From an uncultured Gemmatimonadota bacterium (GTDB taxonomy: Bacteria; JAAXHH01): 64,000 nucleotides of DNA. Made by a program: the position numbers and the translations under genes. Positions within the stretch are counted from its first letter, which is position 1. Each line of letters starts with the position of its first letter. The notes below the pieces were generated by a model, which made no database searches, was not told the DNA's origin, and saw nothing but the letters and a program-made list of their open reading frames with translations. Positions 444 to 24,639 of this stretch are shown one piece after another. The stretch lies in NCBI GenBank assembly GCA_951812955.1, contig OX638340.1, positions 1,472,001 to 1,536,000 of the forward strand, written 5' to 3'.

Positions 444-1339
444 GGCTTGGCTTTTTTCTCGTCCGGCAATGCGGCGTCTGCGCACGATCCCGATTCGCCG
501 GCCAGCCTGGACTCTCCCGGCTGCCTGGTCTCTCCGAACGCTCCGGCCTCTCCGGACTGCCCGATCTGGCCGACAAGGATATTCCGCGGCAGGTCGGCGC
601 TGACCGGGCTTCCGTCAAAATCGCCATAGGCCTGCACGATTTCCAATCCGGCCCGGGCCATCATCTCGCCGAGTTCGTCCAGTGTATACATCCGCACGGA
701 TTCGTCGTAGCTTCGTTCCGCGCCGTCTTCTCTGATCCGCACCTGCTTATTGATGCGCACGTGACCACCCGTCTCGGACGGATCCCCAGAGATCCAGCGC
801 CTCTGTTCGACTTCCATGCCCTCCACGGTGCGGCTGTCCGCCGGGACAAACGTGGAGATGACGTATTCGCGGTTCAGGTAATCCATGAGGAAACGGCCGC
901 CGGGACGCAACGACCGCGTGATGGCATCCAAAACACGCGCGTTCTCCCTGTCCTCCTGGAAGTAACCGAAGCTGGTGAAGAAATTCACGACGAGATCGAA
1001 GGCGGAGACTCCGGGCGGATCGCGCATGTCGCCCTGGATGAAAGTGATGTCCAGCCCTTCTTCCGCTGTACGGCGACGTGCCCTTTCAAGCAATTCTTCC
1101 GATAGGTCAAGTCCAGTTACCCGGTAACCGCGCCGGGCGAGTTCGAGGCTGTGACGGCCGTCGCCGCAACCGAGGTCCAGAACTTCGCACGACGGAGGTA
1201 TGTCCATGTTGTCGACGAGGAAATCGACCTGGCGGTGCGCCTCTTCGTCGTTTCGATGGGGATACACCCGCAGGTAGTCGTAACGAAAGGCGGTCTTGTA
1301 CCAGTCGGATGCCGGACTGCGATGAGAAGCCATGACCAC
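434..1339 (-). CDS. class I SAM-dependent methyltransferase
   Basis: VLDLGCGDGRHSLELARRGYRVTGLDLSEE is a SAM-binding motif I. The ORF starts at GTG 1339, with an alternative ATG at 1333. Its 3' end overlaps the start codon of the downstream DUF62 gene (CCATGTCCGTGA), indicating translational coupling. The C-terminal roughly 50 aa are low-complexity. Confidence 0.8.
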   Translation of the reverse strand: MVMASHRSPASDWYKTAFRYDYLRVYPHRNDEEAHRQVDFLVDNMDIPPSCEVLDLGCGDGRHSLELARRGYRVTGLDLSEELLERARRRTAEEGLDITFIQGDMRDPPGVSAFDLVVNFFTSFGYFQEDRENARVLDAITRSLRPGGRFLMDYLNREYVISTFVPADSRTVEGMEVEQRRWISGDPSETGGHVRINKQVRIREDGAERSYDESVRMYTLDELGEMMARAGLEIVQAYGDFDGSPVSADLPRNILVGQIGQSGEAGAFGETRQPGESRLAGESGSCADAALPDEKKAKPCP

Positions 1340-1543
1340 CTGCCGTATTTACGGATTTACGGGTTCTTGAAACGACGAATTTTCAATATACAACGCAGTG
1401 GTTCCTCGTCAATCCGTGATTGCCGGTCCGCCCGGTACCACGGCGCTTTCTGTTGACAACAGGTACTCATACGTTTAGTTTTCCCATGTTGACTCACGGC
1501 CGCGGCGCCAGGTTTAACGTCCCGGCCCTGACTGGAGTATGCC

Positions 1544-1927
1544 ATGGCCGGCAAAGACAGGCGGGCAAACGGTTCCGAGCCGGATGACGCGGAATTCGAA
1601 AAGCTGCTCGACGAAATGGACGAACTGGGACGGCAAGCCGATGCCCTGCGCGCGAAGGTGAATAATCTCATCGACGAGATGCGGCAGAACGACGTCACTG
1701 CGGACGAGGAAGGCACAGCGGGCGACCTCGCAGTAGACGCGGGGGATGTCTCGGCGAGCGAGGAATCGGGCGACGCACCGGACGAACAAGAAAAAGCGGA
1801 CGGCATCCCGGCAGGCGAGGGCGAGGAGGGAAACGAGGCCGGAGATGGAGACGTCGCTGTGGATACGGACAACGCGGAGGGCAAATCGGGCGGAGAAAGC
1901 CTTGGACGAGCAAGCGGACCAAATTAG
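1544..1927 (+). CDS. hypothetical acidic protein with an N-terminal coiled-coil
   Basis: GGAG sits 9 nt upstream of the ATG. The N-terminus reads EFEKLLDEMDELGRQADALRAKVNNLIDEM, followed by a D/E/G-rich tail. The antisense Ser/Pro-rich ORF 1357-1884 is rejected. Confidence 0.45.
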   Translation: MAGKDRRANGSEPDDAEFEKLLDEMDELGRQADALRAKVNNLIDEMRQNDVTADEEGTAGDLAVDAGDVSASEESGDAPDEQEKADGIPAGEGEEGNEAGDGDVAVDTDNAEGKSGGESLGRASGPN

Positions 1928-1939
1928 AAGTGAAACGAG

Positions 1940-1968
1940 TTGACAAATTGAAGACATGTAGGCATAAT
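1940..1968 (+). promoter_or_regulatory. near-consensus sigma70 promoter (-35 TTGACA 1940-1945, 17-nt spacer, -10 CATAAT 1963-1968)
   Basis: Read directly in the sequence. It lies at the GC-rich to AT-rich transition, about 75 nt upstream of the 2044 ATG. An AGAGG ribosome-binding site sits 8 nt before that ATG. Confidence 0.55.
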
Positions 1969-2043
1969 TCGCTATGAGGAATGGGTAAGTCCAATCTCGT
2001 TGATGAATAAGAGTAATAATCGTAGTGATTGTAGAGGCTCAGT

Positions 2044-2526
2044 ATGATGGCTACACAGGAAATTGAAAGTGCCAATCATATCATAAGCAAAATCGACGAG
2101 TTTCCTGATTACTTTTTAAGACAATACAGTAATGTTCAAAATGAAGCGTTACTTTCAAAAAAACTTGAATACACCGTTCGGTCGTTTAACAAGAGACTGG
2201 AAATCGCATATGAGATCTCTCATGATTTTATAGAATTCTTAAAGCAAGATGGAATAATCGATCCAGAGCAGCCGTTAGTCGGGTGTGTGCAAGAGTACGA
2301 AAAGGTTTGCTCTGAACTCTATCTATATTTCAACCAAATCCCCTCAGACTCTTTTCATTTCCCGCATATCGTTGAAAGATTAACAAAAATACTAAAAGAC
2401 TATGCTGGTAAATTCCAGGATTTACGCTGGGAGGTTATGATCCATAACGGGCTTCTTGCACCTCGGCATACAAATACATTTTCAGGTGGAGATGAGTTTG
2501 AGCAAATTTTAAAACAACGAAATTAA
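2044..2526 (+). CDS. hypothetical 160-aa protein; putative antitoxin or partner of the downstream RelE/ParE-like toxin
   Basis: AT-rich ORF with no motif I recognise. Its TAA stop at 2524-2526 is 1 nt from the ATG of the next gene (TAACATG), a tightly coupled bicistron. Confidence 0.55.
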   Translation: MMATQEIESANHIISKIDEFPDYFLRQYSNVQNEALLSKKLEYTVRSFNKRLEIAYEISHDFIEFLKQDGIIDPEQPLVGCVQEYEKVCSELYLYFNQIPSDSFHFPHIVERLTKILKDYAGKFQDLRWEVMIHNGLLAPRHTNTFSGGDEFEQILKQRN

Positions 2527-2527
2527 C

Positions 2528-2830
2528 ATGAATTACCCCTTCGACGTTCCATCCGAATTCGTAGAACCAGATGATTCCTTCCTTGAGCAACACCAAAAAC
2601 TTCCCTCGTCTTTAAAACAAAATTTCCAAAGATTGTTAGATCAATTCAGAAATCACCGTTTAACACCCGGTCGCAGATTAAAAAAAATCGGTCCTAATCT
2701 GTTCTCGGTAAGATTAAACAGAAAATACCGTTTCGTATATGAATTGCTTTATATAGATGGAAAAGCTGTTGGAAGGCCTCTGGCCGTAGGAAACCATGAT
2801 GAAACATACGACTCGGCAAGTCGGGTTTAA
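2528..2830 (+). CDS. RelE/ParE-family type II toxin (mRNA interferase fold)
   Basis: The C-terminal half LKKIGPNLFSVRLNRKYRFVYELLYIDGKAVGRPLAVGNHDETY matches the RelE/ParE consensus (...LkG.l.g.ysiRig.dYRiiY.v.d..v.vlrIghRkdvY). The gene has AT-rich island composition. Confidence 0.7.
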   Translation: MNYPFDVPSEFVEPDDSFLEQHQKLPSSLKQNFQRLLDQFRNHRLTPGRRLKKIGPNLFSVRLNRKYRFVYELLYIDGKAVGRPLAVGNHDETYDSASRV

Positions 2831-2941
2831 TCAATGAAACGTGTTTCCCCCGTCCTCCCGGTCATAACCAACTAGACTAACATCGGGTTTGGCCGTTGGT
2901 CTTCTATTGTGTGGACTCATCATCTCGAACGGGTTTTAATC

Positions 2942-3916
2942 TCACACCGCGCCAGCCAGGCCGCGTAACCTCTCGTACACGCCGAATGCCTCTTCTCTTG
3001 CGGGTATGGAGTACGTCGCCCCGCGGCCTCGAACCTTGAGGCCGGCCATGACGGTGCCAAGACGGGCGGATTCAACGGCGCTCATGCCATGGGTCAGTCC
3101 GTACAGCAGCCCACCGTTGAAGACGTCCCCGGCCCCCGACGTATCAGACACGTGTTCAGGGACGTAGGCTCGGAGTTCGTGGATTTCGTCGTCCAGCCCG
3201 AGCACGGCGCCTTCCGCGCCGCATTTCACCGCGACCATCTTCACACCCATTTCACGAGCTTGACCGATCACCGCGCGGGCATCGTTCGTACCGAATAGGG
3301 CTTCGCTCTCCTCCGGCGCGCTGGGCAGGAGGATATCCACGTAGGGGATGATCTCGTCCAGTGCCTCTCTGGCTTCCTCCAGGGACCACAGGCCGAGCCT
3401 CAGGTTCGTGTCAAAGGCCGTCGCGACGTTTCTTTCCCGCGAAACGCGGAAGGCCTCCAGCACGGCCGCCCGGCTGCTCTTCGATATGGCCTGGGTGATT
3501 CCGCTGGCATAGACGACTTTCGCGCTTCCGATGTAATCCGGATCGATGTCGGACGGTTCGAGGAAGCTCGCGGCGCTGCCTGCCCGGTAGTAGGTGAATT
3601 CCCGTTCGCCACCCGGAAGGATGGAGATGAAGTAGAGTCCGTTGGGCCGGTCCAGCGCGGTAGCGCAACGCAGGTCGATGCCCTCCGACCGCCACGCCCC
3701 GGTCAGGAAATCCTGGAAGGGGTCGTTGCCGACGTGCGTGACGTACCCGGTCTTGGCGCCCAGGCGGGAGGCCGCCACGAGCATGTTCATGGTGTCGCCG
3801 GCGAAGGTGCGGGTGTAGGTATCTGTGCTGGCGAGGGGCCCTTCGCAGAACATCTCGATCATGCACTCGCCGATCGAGATGATGTCCAGTTTGGAAGGGC
3901 TGTCGGTTATGCCCAC
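2942..3916 (-). CDS. PfkB-family carbohydrate kinase (2-keto-3-deoxygluconate kinase-like)
   Basis: It carries the DTSGAGDVFNGGLLYGL PfkB signature 2 and the N-terminal LDIISIGECMIEMF motif. GTG start at 3916 with a GAGGT ribosome-binding site. The listed 550-aa ORF 2942-4594 is a frame artefact that runs through the upstream methyltransferase gene. Confidence 0.85.
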   Translation of the reverse strand: MGITDSPSKLDIISIGECMIEMFCEGPLASTDTYTRTFAGDTMNMLVAASRLGAKTGYVTHVGNDPFQDFLTGAWRSEGIDLRCATALDRPNGLYFISILPGGEREFTYYRAGSAASFLEPSDIDPDYIGSAKVVYASGITQAISKSSRAAVLEAFRVSRERNVATAFDTNLRLGLWSLEEAREALDEIIPYVDILLPSAPEESEALFGTNDARAVIGQAREMGVKMVAVKCGAEGAVLGLDDEIHELRAYVPEHVSDTSGAGDVFNGGLLYGLTHGMSAVESARLGTVMAGLKVRGRGATYSIPAREEAFGVYERLRGLAGAV

Positions 3917-3924
3917 GGCGGATC

Positions 3925-4584
3925 TTACCTCTTCAAACTCACGGCCACCCCGTCCCGCAAGGGGATAATCGTCGTCCAGACCTCGTCGGTACCATAGGCC
4001 TTCCTGTTGTATTCCTGGATGGCCGAGGTCCAGCGGTCGTCGGAAGGCTGCGTCACGCGTCCGCTCCAGAGCACGTTGTCGGTGATCAACAGGCCACCCC
4101 GGCGGATGCGCGGCAGCGCCAGGTCGAACACGCGGGGATAGTCGTGCTTGTCCACGTCGTTGAAGATCAGGTCGAAGCTGCCCTCGGTCTGCTCCAGCAG
4201 TTCCAGCGCGTCGCCCACCTGGATCACGACGCGGTCCGCCACGCCGGCGCGCTCGATGAACCTTCGGGCCTGGTTGGCGTTCTGCTCGCTGCCGTCGGAG
4301 TAGTAAATCCTGCCTTCCGGACCCACCGCCCGGGCGAGCCAGATGGTTGAATAGCCAATGGCCGAACCCATCTCGAACACGCGGCGCGCGCCGCTTAACA
4401 CGGCCATCTGATGCAGCACGCGGCCGACCAGGGGGCCGACGATAGGTATCCGCTCCGCATTCGCCTTTTCTTCCATTTCGGTGAGGACCTCGTCCCTTTC
4501 GGGCATCAGGTCCGTCAGATAGCCGTCCAGCGCTTCCGAGAGTACGTTGGGCATTGGGTTGTTGCTCCTGCTGTTGCGGGCCAT
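3925..4584 (-). CDS. class I SAM-dependent O-methyltransferase (caffeoyl-CoA OMT / YrrM family)
   Basis: VFEMGSAIGYSTIWLA is a SAM motif I, LIFNDVDKHDYP is the OMT family pattern, and the length is 219 aa. Confidence 0.85.
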   Translation of the reverse strand: MARNSRSNNPMPNVLSEALDGYLTDLMPERDEVLTEMEEKANAERIPIVGPLVGRVLHQMAVLSGARRVFEMGSAIGYSTIWLARAVGPEGRIYYSDGSEQNANQARRFIERAGVADRVVIQVGDALELLEQTEGSFDLIFNDVDKHDYPRVFDLALPRIRRGGLLITDNVLWSGRVTQPSDDRWTSAIQEYNRKAYGTDEVWTTIIPLRDGVAVSLKR

Positions 4585-4611
4585 GGTATTTCAAAGCTCC
4601 GTGGTGTCGAA

Positions 4612-5541
4612 TCAGAAGATCTCGACCTTAACATACCTGCCGGGATTGGATTTCAGATCAACGACGAGTTCGTCCAGGTTGGTCACCAGGCGGTCCATCT
4701 TGACGAACACGCGGTCGACGTCGTCGTACAGCGTCTCATCCAGGAGCAGCTTGCCGAGTGTTCCCTCGCCCCGGTCCATCCGGGCGAGAATGTTATCCAG
4801 CGATGTATTCGTGGACTGCAGGCCGTTCACCAGGGTCTTCAACTGGCCCGAAGTGCTTTCCAGGTTGTCCAGGGTGTTCGAAACCTTGGACCGTTCGGTC
4901 TCGCTCAGGTTCTTCGCGTTGACCACCAGCGAGTCCATGTTCGTCAGGACCCGGTTGAACTGCGCGCTCTCGCGTTTAATGGTCTCCTGCAGTTCGACGG
5001 TCAGGTCGTGCATAGCCGCAAGACTGCTCATTACCGACTTATCCCGACCGGGGTCCAGGAGCAGGTTGGCGTTTTTCAGCAGGTCGCGCACGTTCACGGT
5101 AACGGAATCGACCTGGGTGAACATGTCGGAAATCCCCGGCGCGGACGTACCCTCGATAGTGCCCCCCGGCGGAATCATCGTCGTACTGACGCCCTTGCGG
5201 ATGTTGATGGATTTCTCGCCCATGACGCTGCGCGAAATCACTTCCACCTGCGAATCCTCGGGGATCTCGTAGGGCTCGTCGATACGCAGGGTGACGATGG
5301 GTGTCAGGTCGTCGAGCGTCACGGCCTCGACTTTGCCGATGCGCACGCCGCCTACGAGGATCGGATCGGTGGATTTCACCCCTACGGCGCTGCTCAAACG
5401 TACCTCGACCAGGTAGGTATCTCCCGTTACGCGCCATTCTTTCAGATAGAACAGGCCCCAGACGAATATGATGATCGCCAGGAGAAATACCATGCCCAGT
5501 TTCGCTTCGTCGGGCAGCAGACTGTTTTTCTGGTACGTCAC
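4612..5541 (-). CDS. mlaD: MlaD/MCE-domain protein (phospholipid ABC transport periplasmic component)
   Basis: N-terminal TM helix, then the MCE domain (LVEVRLSSAVGVKSTDPILVGGVRIGKV), then a coiled-coil C-terminus. Confidence 0.8.
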   Translation of the reverse strand: MTYQKNSLLPDEAKLGMVFLLAIIIFVWGLFYLKEWRVTGDTYLVEVRLSSAVGVKSTDPILVGGVRIGKVEAVTLDDLTPIVTLRIDEPYEIPEDSQVEVISRSVMGEKSINIRKGVSTTMIPPGGTIEGTSAPGISDMFTQVDSVTVNVRDLLKNANLLLDPGRDKSVMSSLAAMHDLTVELQETIKRESAQFNRVLTNMDSLVVNAKNLSETERSKVSNTLDNLESTSGQLKTLVNGLQSTNTSLDNILARMDRGEGTLGKLLLDETLYDDVDRVFVKMDRLVTNLDELVVDLKSNPGRYVKVEIF

Positions 5542-5556
5542 GTCGAACCTCCTGGT

Positions 5557-6333
5557 TTACAGGATCGTCCTGGCCAGCAGATAGTCCAGGCACAGAATCA
5601 ATATGCACGACACCACCACGGTATTGGTGGTCGCCTGGCCCACACCTTCCGCGCCTGAGCCCGGTTTCACCTTGAAACCCTGGTAGCAGGCGATGGTGGT
5701 GATTGTTATCCCGAAGCAGAAGGCCTTGGACAGCCCGAAGAATGCGTCCTTGGTCCGGAAGAACTCCCGCATGCCCCGTTCGAAATCGGGGATGCTCACC
5801 TGCATCCGGTCGATGGCCGCGACCATGCCAGACAGCACCCCGATCAGGTCGGCGAACACCACGAGGACCGGCAGCATGAACATGCCGGCGATGATGCGGG
5901 GGATCGCCAGGTAGACGATGGGGTTCATCGCCATCACCTCGTAGGCGTCGATCTGCTCGGTCACCCGCATCGTGCCGAGTTCGGCCGCGATGGTGGCGCC
6001 CACCCGTCCCGACAGCACCAGGGCGCCGAGTACAGGCGCGAGTTCGAGGACCACCGATGAAAGGACGACGCTGCCCACGAGGTAGGCGGGTACGTACCCC
6101 TGGAATTGGTACCCGGTCTGCACGGCGGTCACGAGGCCGGCGAAGAAGGCGATGATCAGGACGATCGGCATGGAATGGATGCCGATCTCGAACATCTGGT
6201 GGACCATCAGCCCCCAGTACGTCCTGATCCGCGGCAGGTTCCGGACGACTTCGACCATCATCATGCCGAAGTCGCCGATATTCGTCAGCGCCCAGAGAAC
6301 GCGTCTGCCAAGGAAGGAAAAGAAGGAGGTCAT
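5557..6333 (-). CDS. mlaE: MlaE/YrbE-family ABC transporter permease
   Basis: 258 aa and polytopic. It has the characteristic MlaE motifs (GYQFQGYVPAYLVGSVV, AMNPIVYLAIPRIIA). Confidence 0.85.
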   Translation of the reverse strand: MTSFFSFLGRRVLWALTNIGDFGMMMVEVVRNLPRIRTYWGLMVHQMFEIGIHSMPIVLIIAFFAGLVTAVQTGYQFQGYVPAYLVGSVVLSSVVLELAPVLGALVLSGRVGATIAAELGTMRVTEQIDAYEVMAMNPIVYLAIPRIIAGMFMLPVLVVFADLIGVLSGMVAAIDRMQVSIPDFERGMREFFRTKDAFFGLSKAFCFGITITTIACYQGFKVKPGSGAEGVGQATTNTVVVSCILILCLDYLLARTIL

Positions 6334-22049: not shown

Positions 22050-22556
22050 TCAGTGCCCGTTCCGTTCCAATGTTCCTGCCTTGACCTCAACCTTTCCGAT
22101 CTCGTTTCCGAAGTACTGAATCATCCTCAGGGCTGCGTCCACCTCGTCCGACTGCACGAACTCCCATTGGTCTGATTCCTCGATGCCGCGCTCCGCCTCG
22201 ATGCCGCGCTCCGCAAGGAGATTGCGGAATCGATCCGCCACCGCCCGCCCCCTGCTGCTCAAATCATACATCCAGAGATCGGGATCGGCGGGATCCATGC
22301 TGCTCCGCACCATGTGACCGCGTTCCAGTCCGCACATCGCGGATTTCGTGCTCGAATGCGCACAGTCCAGGTGCCTGGAAATGGCGCTCATGGGTAGCGC
22401 GCCTAATCGCTCAAGTGCAAACAGGGCCCGGATCCGGAGGATCGTCTCATCCCGGCGCTCCAGTTCGTCTTCGCGGTGGGACAGGAACCGGAAGGCCAGA
22501 CGCTCCACCACTCCCAAAAAACGGCGTTCCAGTTCACTTCTGTGCCAATCGGACAT
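22050..22556 (-). CDS. MarR-like winged-helix transcriptional regulator (divergent)
   Basis: ALPMSAISRHLDCAHSSTKSAMCGLERGHMVRSSMDPADPD ... LSSRGRAVADRF follows the MarR wHTH pattern. It contains an 18-bp in-frame duplication (ERGIEAERGIEE). Confidence 0.55.
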   Translation of the reverse strand: MSDWHRSELERRFLGVVERLAFRFLSHREDELERRDETILRIRALFALERLGALPMSAISRHLDCAHSSTKSAMCGLERGHMVRSSMDPADPDLWMYDLSSRGRAVADRFRNLLAERGIEAERGIEESDQWEFVQSDEVDAALRMIQYFGNEIGKVEVKAGTLERNGH

Positions 22557-22970: not shown

Positions 22971-23331
22971 GATGCTACCTGACCTGCATATGCACGGCCG
23001 TCGTCCGATGCTTACGTCGTCCGATGCTTAATGGTGGCAGGCTGCACGCCGCCTATAGTGGCCGTGTTTCCTGCTTGAAGCGGACGAGAATTCGTTCCAA
23101 GGTGCCTGGAACCGATGAGCTAGGCGGCTTCGTTTACATCGCATGGCTCCCATGAACGTTACCCAGCTCGATCGGATTGTTTGACAACTGCACAAATTGC
23201 ACACACGCTAAGTGGTAGATATACGTTTATGACAACAATATCAAGAACAAGTATAGTAATGTCAATAGTAAATTACGTTATAACTGTTATTTCGTTAAAT
23301 AGTAGTTTAATTTAAGGAGAGTAATAAAACA

Positions 23332-23370
23332 ATGAAATACTCTGATTTGCGATTCTACAGGCTTTACTAG
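23332..23370 (+). CDS. 12-codon mini-ORF (MKYSDLRFYRLY) with a strong Shine-Dalgarno; possible leader peptide or small peptide gene
   Basis: AAGGAGAG lies 10 nt upstream of the ATG and the context is AT-rich. Status is speculative. Confidence 0.2.
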   Translation: MKYSDLRFYRLY

Positions 23371-23407
23371 CTTCAAAAACAAGGAATGGTGATACTCTAG
23401 TGACCAT

Positions 23408-23668
23408 TTAATCCATTTTAAGATAATATTGTTTATATATAACTTTTCTTTTTATACGTCGTTCTAACCTGACCAATCTCCAAATCCGGTATGGTTTTCC
23501 TTTTTCGAATGCACAGGTTTCAATAACCCGTACTGCCCTATACTGCTTGACATTGGCATCGTTTACGGCGTAGTTTATTCCGGAATTTGTTGCGAATGGA
23601 AATTGCTGGTCGGGGGCAGTCAAGAAACGAAATACAGGATGGGAATTGGCGACCGAAATGGTAAACAA
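23408..23668 (-). CDS. hypothetical 86-aa protein with a basic C-terminus
   Basis: ORF in the AT-rich island. I recognise no motif. Confidence 0.3.
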   Translation of the reverse strand: MFTISVANSHPVFRFLTAPDQQFPFATNSGINYAVNDANVKQYRAVRVIETCAFEKGKPYRIWRLVRLERRIKRKVIYKQYYLKMD

Positions 23669-23747
23669 CGCCTCGATCAGGGAATCAATAAACGGAGGAT
23701 AGCATCCCCGGATTCCTTCGTATCACCGGCCTGTTTAACTTAGGTGA

Positions 23748-24263
23748 GTGATCGTGCAGGTAAACAACCTGAGAGATCTTTCAGATCGCTTCGTGACCGT
23801 AGTGAGACAGTTGTGCCGTTTGACATACATCGCAAGACTGAATGAGTGGCAGGGGCTGGACATGACCGTGCCTCAGATCAAGACGTTGATTCTGATCGAG
23901 CACTTGGGGCCGCTCAGGATGGGCGCGATAGCCAGTTACCTGGGCAGCGGCCTTTCCACTACGACCACGATAGTGGATCGCCTGGTGAAAAAGCAGCTGG
24001 TTCAACGGGATTCGGATCCGAACGATCGAAGAGTCGTGATATGCGAACTGACTTCCAAGGGTCGGGATGCGACCGAGTTGTTCTGGGATCACCTGAAGAC
24101 GAAAGCGCTGATGCTTTCCGATCAGTGGGAAGTGGATCAATTCGAAAAGGTCGTCCAGGCGCTTGAACTGATCTGGGGTACCGAGGAAGCGCTTCAATCG
24201 GCATCTGATTCCGCTCCGCCCATCGTCAGCCAATCTCCCGGCGCCAAGTCATCCGCGCTTTAA
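23748..24263 (+). CDS. MarR-family transcriptional regulator
   Basis: LDMTVPQIKTLILIEHLGPLRMGAIASYLGSGLSTTTTIVDRLVKKQLVQRDSDPNDRRVVICELTSKGRD is a canonical MarR wHTH. GTG start. Confidence 0.85.
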   Translation: MIVQVNNLRDLSDRFVTVVRQLCRLTYIARLNEWQGLDMTVPQIKTLILIEHLGPLRMGAIASYLGSGLSTTTTIVDRLVKKQLVQRDSDPNDRRVVICELTSKGRDATELFWDHLKTKALMLSDQWEVDQFEKVVQALELIWGTEEALQSASDSAPPIVSQSPGAKSSAL

Positions 24264-24343: not shown

Positions 24344-24393
24344 TGTGGTGGAAAAAGCCGCGAGTGCTTACTACACTGACCGTATAGCGGTAC

Positions 24394-24466
24394 GGGGAAT
24401 CGAACCCCGGTTTGATGGCTGAGAACCACCCGTCCTAACCACTAGACGATACCGCCGCGTTGCTCT
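24394..24466 (-). tRNA. tRNA-Glu (anticodon CUC)
   Basis: Manual cloverleaf fold. Acceptor stem GGCGGTA/TACCGCT with a G1-U72 pair, D-stem GTCT/GGAC, anticodon stem GGTGG/CCATC, anticodon loop TTCTCAG, T-arm CGGGG-TTCGATT-CCCCG. CCA is not encoded. Confidence 0.8.
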
Positions 24467-24569
24467 TGACGAAAATACCCCATTTACCGGCCATAGTCAA
24501 GTATCCGGGCCGGCTTTTATATCGCTTCGAAGACGTAAAATCCTCTACGGGCATGGCAAGAATGTGAAC

Positions 24570-24639
24570 TGGGGGGCAGGGATTCGAACCCCGATTCCAT
24601 GGTCCAGAGCCATGTGTCCTACCCTTGAACGACCCCCCA
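24570..24639 (-). tRNA. tRNA-Gln (anticodon CUG)
   Basis: U1-A72 first pair and G73 discriminator, as is typical of bacterial tRNA-Gln. Anticodon stem CATGG/CCATG, loop CTCTGGA, T-loop TTCGAAT. The ends are +/-2 nt. Confidence 0.75.

Follow-up and report, generated by a model that had tools for sequence, protein, structure and literature searches.

Modules of the type II toxin-antitoxin (TA) class that carry a RelE-like toxin are the closest described systems to the locus presented here. Escherichia coli RelE is a ribosome-dependent mRNA endonuclease of this class. Many type II modules, though not all, have an antitoxin with a DNA-binding domain and an autoregulated operon. In paaR2-paaA2-parE2, where PaaA2 is a short disordered peptide, and in epsilon/zeta with omega, the antitoxin has no DNA-binding domain and the regulator is encoded by a separate gene. 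The common RelE/ParE toxin fold is found recombined with unrelated antitoxin domains, as in the NetFlax network (PMC10440598) and in guilt-by-association surveys (PMC3141249). The locus described here is a cassette of two small open reading frames (ORFs), ORF1 and ORF2, in a 64,000 nt stretch of contig OX638340.1 (assembly GCA_951812955.1) from an uncultured bacterium; this whole stretch is referred to as the window. The cassette is probably a chromosomal type II TA module in which a gene for a new family of antitoxin, ORF1, precedes a gene for a RelE-like toxin, ORF2.

ORF2 had been assigned to the RelE/ParE superfamily in a preliminary description of the window on the basis of a C-terminal signature. 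This assignment holds in the predicted fold, in the structure and profile searches, in a PHROG match and in the Pfam matches of the family. The AlphaFold2 model of ORF2 (predicted local distance difference test score, pLDDT, 77.6) displays the order beta-alpha-alpha-beta4-alpha, which is the RelE topology. Its elements are a strand at residues 10–11, helices at 16–23 and 27–41, strands at 51–55, 58–62, 67–76 and 79–89 and a helix at 90–98. The conserved fold is thus present in the model, i.e., the compact BECR fold with two N-terminal helices on an antiparallel beta-sheet in approximately 85–100 aa. A Foldseek comparison of the model with PDB structures yields nearly all RelE, YoeB, YafQ and HigB with a probability of 1.00. 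The top matches have template modelling (TM) scores of 0.55–0.73 (up to 0.73 when normalised to the target), and ParE2 first appears at rank 41. When a profile built from ORF2 and close homologues is compared with PDB sequences, residues 11–98 align with residues 4–91 of E. coli RelE (95 aa) at E = 0.02, and staphylococcal YoeB ranks next. ORF2 also matches PHROG 1213, annotated as a RelE-like toxin, over its whole length (E = 1e-7). As a single sequence it shows Pfam similarity to HigB-like (E = 0.006, 17.5 bits with a cut-off of 27) and to ParE_like (E = 0.04, 14.4 bits with a cut-off of 24.4), and there is no NCBIfam match. Among ORF2 family members the best Pfam values are 3e-6 for ParE_toxin (two members), 2e-5 for YoeB_toxin (four members) and 1.5e-4 for HigB-like. 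The sub-threshold sequence matches all agree with membership of this superfamily. The family has a conserved N-terminal extension, MN.PF..PS.F.EP.

The association of ORF2 with ORF1 is phylogenetically conserved. Close homologues of ORF1 form 8 clusters among 5.8 billion proteins, and a profile search of 1.84 billion representatives shows five remote homologues of 156–176 aa (E values of 1e-8 to 2e-4). A RelE-like ORF of approximately 100 aa is directly downstream in all five remote loci (L009, L011/L012, L013/L014, L015 and L016), with identities to the window of 22–25% for ORF1 and 33–43% for ORF2. In L016, for which the long-read assembly has 3x coverage, this ORF appears to be interrupted by one frameshift. 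A genome scan with the toxin profile reveals two named genomes, both metagenome-assembled genomes (MAGs) of Candidatus Latescibacterota, and in each there is an ORF1-like gene immediately upstream. These loci answer the question, raised at the outset, of whether the pair co-occurs in other genomes. A genome scan with the ORF1 profile found nothing, a metagenome scan gave only a contig that was already known, and no relatives were found on viral contigs. All loci with an ORF1 homologue carry a RelE-like gene downstream or the remnant of one (it is deleted in L010), and they represent at least six genomic contexts. Two properties that serve as criteria for type II TA modules are therefore found here: adjacent, co-directional small genes in one operon, and conserved co-occurrence across genomes and contexts. 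The cassette seems so far to be present only in Latescibacterota-type genomes.

The gene junction is of the same type in distant loci. The two coupled ORFs joined by TAAcATG, as first described, are present in the window; a stop-N-ATG arrangement or a stop directly abutting the ATG is found in L007, L009, L011 and L013, and the genes overlap in L015. The forms in remote loci are TAGgATG, TGAgATG, TAGATG or a gene overlap. The junction suggests translational coupling of ORF1 and ORF2. The isoelectric points (pI) are complementary, 4.5–5.4 for ORF1 proteins and 9.4–10.4 for ORF2 proteins with one exception at 7.9, which is only suggestive of binding. Both genes are under purifying selection, with ratios of nonsynonymous to synonymous divergence (dN/dS) of 0.07–0.37 overall and 0.11–0.37 for ORF1.

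ORF1 represents a family that is absent from the domain and structure libraries Pfam, NCBIfam, PADLOC, PHROGs and PDB. In the first four of these there is nothing at threshold and no match below E = 0.08; FtsK_gamma (E = 0.18) and xenorhabdolysin B (E = 0.08) were discarded as noise. A Pfam scan of 12 family members gave scattered single matches to unrelated families, which were dismissed as chance. Two matches of ORF1 profiles to PDB sequences, Cmr5 with a narrow profile (E = 0.25) and a de novo designed helical protein with a wide profile (E = 3e-5), were both rejected as compositional similarity of helical proteins. ORF1 had been described as having no recognisable antitoxin motif, and in all five libraries it shows no detectable similarity to RelB, Phd/YefM, ParD, HigA, DinJ, MqsA or Panacea/DUF4065. 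The Foldseek search with an AlphaFold model that was then proposed has been carried out; it gives only generic helical bundles from the PDB, with a best E value of 0.34. The model (pLDDT 57.8) consists of a helical core at residues ~34–127 and ends of low confidence. A remote fold kinship with a described antitoxin could still exist because the model is of low confidence.

Alignment of the ORF1 family reveals three conserved patches, which are the N-terminal helix, a central D..(Q/D).LV......E motif and a C-terminal block with the consensus FQDLRW(E/K)(V/I)(L/M)I(H/R)(N/D)G.LAPR...TFSG..EF. In alignment A5, L127, R128, I133, G136, T145 and F146 are invariant, and F124, W129, L138, P140, G148 and F152 are nearly so. 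The helical core varies among family members. Residues 130–160, which are modelled in the monomer as a beta-hairpin and a helix, have a pLDDT below 50. The C-terminal block, which the monomer model leaves unplaced, is read as an antitoxin segment that would fold on the toxin, and it is the putative toxin-binding segment.

The following mode of action is proposed. A single bicistronic mRNA would be made from one promoter, and ORF1 would be translated first, from AGAGG-N6-ATG. ORF2 is without an obvious ribosome-binding site and would be translated by termination-reinitiation at TAAcATG; through this coupling the amount of toxin would not exceed that of the antitoxin. ORF1 would bind ORF2, probably via the conserved C-terminal hairpin-helix (residues ~124–157), and thereby block the toxin. 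When ORF1 is depleted, ORF2 would cleave translated mRNAs. The variable bundle of ORF1 (residues ~34–127) and the conserved N-terminal helix may function in oligomerisation and possibly in regulation. We infer toxicity and mRNase activity for ORF2, neutralisation for ORF1 and, for the operon, any autoregulation. The features of the locus are listed in Table 1.

Table 1. Positions of the cassette features in the window
Feature	Position	Strand	Basis or remark
Sigma-70-like promoter candidate, TTGACA-17-CATAAT	1940–1968	+	11/12 consensus positions; at GC/AT boundary
Putative 5' leader with Shine-Dalgarno-like AGAGG at 2033–2037	1969–2043	+	Read from sequence
ORF1, 160 aa, acidic (pI 5.2), all-helical, proposed antitoxin	2044–2526	+	Candidate for a new family; intact in every locus examined
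ORF1 residues 124–152, most conserved block of the family (FQDLRWEVMIHNGLLAPRHTNTFSGGDEF), proposed toxin-binding segment	2413–2499	+	Alignment A5
TAA-c-ATG junction (stop, one base, start)	2524–2530	+	Sequence
ORF2, 100 aa, basic (pI 9.6), RelE/ParE superfamily, proposed toxin	2528–2830	+	Fold, profile and PHROG matches
Run of eight A's inside ORF2, site of the 1-bp deletion in the L002–L006 alleles	2680–2687	+	Nucleotide alignment across loci

ORF1 is much larger than most antitoxins that are partners of RelE and has no detectable DNA-binding domain, and the variability of its helical core would suit a recognition surface. Restriction-modification or HNH genes and transposases are neighbours of some remote copies of the pair, and TA modules that act in phage defence are documented (PMC11980606 and, in its general account, PMC10440598). 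These properties would fit an abortive-infection or defence module in which the helical domain of ORF1 senses a phage product and releases or activates the RelE-type effector. This reading overlaps with that of a TA module and would give the pair a specific biological role. Such a function is unlikely, as PADLOC assigns 0 families to the two proteins, no copy was found on viral contigs, and the dN/dS values of ORF1 show no diversifying selection. The genes that surround the cassette in the window and in its syntenic neighbours are metabolic and envelope genes and not a defence island; residence near restriction-modification or HNH genes is limited to some of the remote copies. Equally doubtful is a more specific proposal, in which ORF1 would be a new antitoxin architecture with a non-DNA-binding helical-bundle sensor and a short C-terminal motif that clamps the toxin. 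In that case the pair would act as a RelE switch that responds to a trigger, e.g., a Latescibacterota-specific, phage-sensing abortive infection system and not a plain addiction cassette. The preliminary description had left the choice between an undescribed TA system and an anti-phage system. The pairing, gene order, charge and toxin-first decay of the cassette fit a type II TA module, and the anti-phage part of that proposal is unsupported.

A second consideration is the type of toxin. At this resolution the RelE fold cannot be told from the ParE fold, and ORF2 and two family members show the ParE_like and ParE_toxin matches given above. The Pfam ParE family contains both mRNases and gyrase inhibitors with no clean separation (PMC11980606). 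These points would allow ORF2 to be a ParE-type poison of DNA gyrase in a module of otherwise the same architecture. This is quite improbable in view of the best sequence and fold matches, which are RelE, YoeB, YafQ and HigB with ParE2 far below, and of the PHROG match to a RelE-like toxin. It is also less consistent with what is seen at most of the residues K52, K54, R61, R81 and Y87 of RelE, which we take from the RelE-ribosome literature to be important for catalysis. In the hidden Markov model alignment with RelE, these correspond to S60, R62, R68, H90 and Y94 of ORF2, so that the residue is compatible at four of the five positions, K52 being the exception. The wider ORF2 family has invariant R62, R68 and Y94 and either H or R at position 90. 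The C-terminal ending of remote homologues is the classical VGHR..VY, and the window type is GNHDETY. An mRNA-cleaving RelE is favoured over a gyrase-poisoning ParE because of the fold and profile matches together with the conserved residues at RelE positions. ORF2 is most likely a divergent RelE-type toxin that would cleave mRNA in the ribosomal A site.

A comparison of related loci shows that ORF2 is repeatedly damaged or lost and that ORF1 is not (Table 2). In the closest relatives the cassette is at the same chromosomal site as in the window, and four close lineages have a broken ORF2 beside an intact ORF1. Asymmetric decay, in which the toxin is lost and the antitoxin is kept, is a further criterion for type II modules and is what is found here. 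The repeated, independent loss of ORF2 and never of ORF1 is as expected if ORF2 is harmful without ORF1. The lesion allele of L002–L006 is robust.

Table 2. State of ORF1 and ORF2 in the window and in related loci
Locus	ORF1	ORF2
Window	Intact	Intact
L001 (96.8% nt identity over 8.5 kb)	Identical to window	1-bp deletion right after ATG
L002–L006 (five independent assemblies)	Identical to window	1-bp deletion in A8 run and 4-bp deletion
L008 (ORF1 74% identical)	Intact	1-bp deletion and GGA-to-TGA stop
L024	Intact	TAA at codon 3
L010	Intact	Wholly deleted (compared with L009)
L019/L020, L022, L023, L007, L017	Intact	Intact

In lineages with a frameshifted, truncated or deleted ORF2, ORF1 persists intact and under purifying selection, and the cassette has stayed at one chromosomal site over synonymous divergences (dS) of ~0.2–0.9. 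This could also mean that ORF1 has its own host function and that ORF2 is a dispensable or decaying passenger, with a pairing that is historical and does not reflect a working toxin-antidote relation in this genome. Such a reading is very improbable, since there are only one or two ORF2 lesions per allele, which are therefore recent and would have left ORF1 no time to decay, intact ORF2 has a dN/dS of 0.07–0.37, the pair and its junction are conserved across subfamilies at the low identities given above, and ORF1 has a somewhat higher dN/dS in comparisons with L008, where ORF2 is dead (0.27–0.37 vs 0.13–0.29 in other close pairs). The last effect is small but is compatible with a relaxed constraint on ORF1 after toxin loss.

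Intact ORF2 homologues are not called as genes on most contigs. Examples are at positions 3099–3401 in L019, 2023–2325 in L022, 3482–3790 in L023 and 6497–6802 in L007. The ORF2 sequence of the window is absent from a collection of 15 billion proteins. Since ORF2 genes are seldom called, the toxin family is nearly invisible and ORF1 appears orphan-like in protein databases.

Several points weigh against a type II TA module with a RelE-type toxin. ORF2 of the window is below the gathering thresholds of the curated Pfam families, and with S60 in place of RelE K52 one catalytic residue is gone. The ORF1 model is poor. The lesions in L008 and L024, both from long-read assemblies of low coverage, may in part reflect sequencing errors, and an intact ORF1 beside a dead ORF2 fits an own function of ORF1 as well. 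Since the ORF1 family is tiny, the co-occurrence of the two genes is based on about a dozen independent loci. In addition, no helix-turn-helix, ribbon-helix-helix, AbrB or Phd/YefM domain is found in ORF1 among the 12 family members by sequence, PDB profile and fold searches. Because ORF1 has no detectable DNA-binding domain, the usual TA autoregulation has no visible basis. The apparent lack of this domain is the main departure from a textbook TA module. Either the helical domain of ORF1 would bind DNA in a new way or the operon would not be autoregulated.

The base composition of the locus is distinct. In 200-nt windows the GC content is 0.35–0.41 at about 1900–2800 and 0.60–0.68 on both sides, with recovery by position 3000. 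This agrees with the trough of approximately 1 kb between host genes that was first described. Only one 500-nt bin elsewhere in the 64-kb window has a GC content below 0.43 (23001–23500). GC at third codon positions (GC3) is 0.34–0.39 in the cassette (2044–2830) vs 0.78–0.89 in the PfkB and O-methyltransferase genes (2942–4554), and the GC of each family member is 8–26 points under that of its host locus. The cassette had been termed a horizontally acquired islet, and a recent transfer is not borne out. Values of dS between the window and L019, L008 and L022 are 0.22, 0.55 and 0.90 for ORF1, 0.15, 0.60 and 0.65 for PfkB and 0.36, 0.36 and 0.39 for the O-methyltransferase. Recent horizontal transfer is rejected, as ORF1 and the genes beside it show matching dS values. 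Because it is at the same site in related species with a dS equal to that of its flanks, the cassette is considered old and vertically inherited with its neighbours since these species separated; it has kept its low GC and has not shifted to the base composition of the host. A deep GC trough is thus no proof of recent transfer, as the low GC3 here is seen despite the divergence of vertical descent. The forces that keep host genes GC-rich may act weakly on a poorly expressed accessory cassette; selection for low GC in the cassette is also conceivable.

On a longer scale the ORF1-ORF2 family moves. L007/L017 and the remote copies are in unrelated contexts, and several have as neighbours transposase genes or fragments, a PIN-domain gene, an HNH-methylase or HsdM. 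The surroundings of remote copies in L011 (263–915 and 1900–3126), L015 (1307–2566) and L016 (6484–7464) are of an accessory, mobile or defence-related type and unlike the housekeeping context of the window. A PIN-domain pair, a DDE transposase, an N6/N4-methylase-HNH fusion and an HsdM methylase are found near remote copies. In L007 (5717–5995 and 7132–8181) and L016 (~3800–4000 and 4894–5712) a small ORF ending in ...RRSEIGRKAA..RWK precedes the pair and an IS1/IS1595-like transposase fragment follows it. The similar flanks of L007 and L016, which belong to two subfamilies, suggest a shared mobile unit that would carry the pair.

The promoter candidate at the upstream border was described as near-consensus sigma70. 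The match itself stands, and part of it is conserved. The -35 block GTGAAAC.A-GTTGACA is kept in six syntenic loci (L002, L019, L022, L008, L023 and L024), and a GAGGCT.A..ATG block at the start of ORF1 is also kept in syntenic loci. The -10 hexamer varies among the same six loci, and the assignment is one of consensus match. A scan at a loose threshold (≥9/12) gives 1.9 sites per 2 kb in shuffled sequence; with approximately two chance sites per 2 kb at this threshold, the promoter match is weak on its own. The only palindrome in the promoter spacer is the 6-bp ACATGT. There is no Rfam match over positions 1300–3300, and a structured RNA, riboswitch or RNA antitoxin was rejected on the basis of this blank result. 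No terminator was found 3' of ORF2 on the + strand.

The neighbours of the cassette are ordinary GC-rich genes on both sides, as had been noted. A methyltransferase and a 127-aa acidic protein are encoded on the 5' side, and PfkB kinase, O-methyltransferase, MlaD/MlaE and H+-pyrophosphatase (H+-PPase) genes follow on the 3' side on the opposite strand. There is no second copy of the cassette in the 64-kb window. No notable direct or inverted repeats and no tRNA are present at the cassette borders, and mobile-element boundaries were ruled out on these grounds.

The 127-aa protein (1544–1927) is directly upstream of the cassette. It has a conserved N-terminus, MAGKDRRANGS..DDAEFEKLLDEMDELGRQADALRAKVN.LIDEMR, and an acidic low-complexity tail that is fast-evolving, with total lengths of 101–127 aa. 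Its identity to the L022 and L008 proteins is 57–64% vs 86–94% for the flanking enzymes, and no Pfam match is on record for it. In the same-species strains L002, L003 and L004 (92–98% nt identity) the O-methyltransferase and MlaD genes are separated by an extra HipA_C kinase gene with one or two small ORFs (L002 5175–6592, L003 3350–4767 and L004 2964–4381). These two genes abut in the window (4585–4611), ~2 kb from the cassette. The insertion looks like a second, strain-variable TA-like element. The other AT-rich patch of the window (23000–23700; GC 0.40 in 23001–23500) is largely without long ORFs. It is between two ORFs that are MarR-like by eye and adjoins tRNA-Glu(CTC) and tRNA-Gln(CTG); further coordinates listed with this patch are 22050–22556, 23748–24263 and 24385–24639.

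If the proposed function is correct, the RelE/ParE network gains in ORF1 a further antitoxin family, which is new at least in sequence and perhaps in fold, lacks a visible DNA-binding domain and comes from a phylum in which no model organism is in culture. The alleles of ORF2 within one species are of significance in that they represent a natural experiment, where intact, frameshifted and doubly frameshifted toxin genes are beside an identical antitoxin gene. This series documents the toxin-first decay of a chromosomal module. The locus also illustrates that a toxin gene usually uncalled by gene finders in such GC-rich genomes leaves its antitoxin orphan-like in databases.

A comparison with described systems places the cassette nearest to relBE of E. 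coli and archaea. It shares with relBE the order of antitoxin then toxin, coupled genes, an acidic upstream partner and a basic toxin of ~95–100 aa with the RelE fold. The best PDB sequence and fold matches of ORF2 are to RelE, and the positions of K54, R61, R81 and Y87 are kept. It differs in that ORF1 is a 160-aa helical protein with no detectable similarity to RelB, which is a ribbon-helix-helix protein of ~80 aa, and in that ORF2 is below the Pfam thresholds, carries the N-terminal extension and has S at the position of RelE K52. The yefM-yoeB and axe-txe modules have the same gene order, and the YoeB structures 7v6w, 7v5y and 6n90 are among the top fold matches of ORF2; however, ORF1 has no Phd/YefM domain, and the C-terminal motif of the ORF2 family is GNHDETY or GHR..VY. 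The absence of a detectable DNA-binding domain in ORF1 recalls paaR2-paaA2-parE2 and epsilon/zeta with omega. In contrast to these, the ORF1-ORF2 pair has no conserved third gene, which is excluded because the upstream neighbour differs between contexts, and ORF1 is a 160-aa bundle and not a short peptide such as PaaA2. Modules of the NetFlax and guilt-by-association type resemble the cassette in concept, i.e., a toxin with a swapped antitoxin. The ORF1 family has no entry in Pfam, NCBIfam, PADLOC or PHROGs, and its distribution seems restricted to Latescibacterota-like genomes. Because the swapping of antitoxin domains is well documented, a new partner of RelE is not a new kind of system, and the findings do not overturn current ideas on TA systems.

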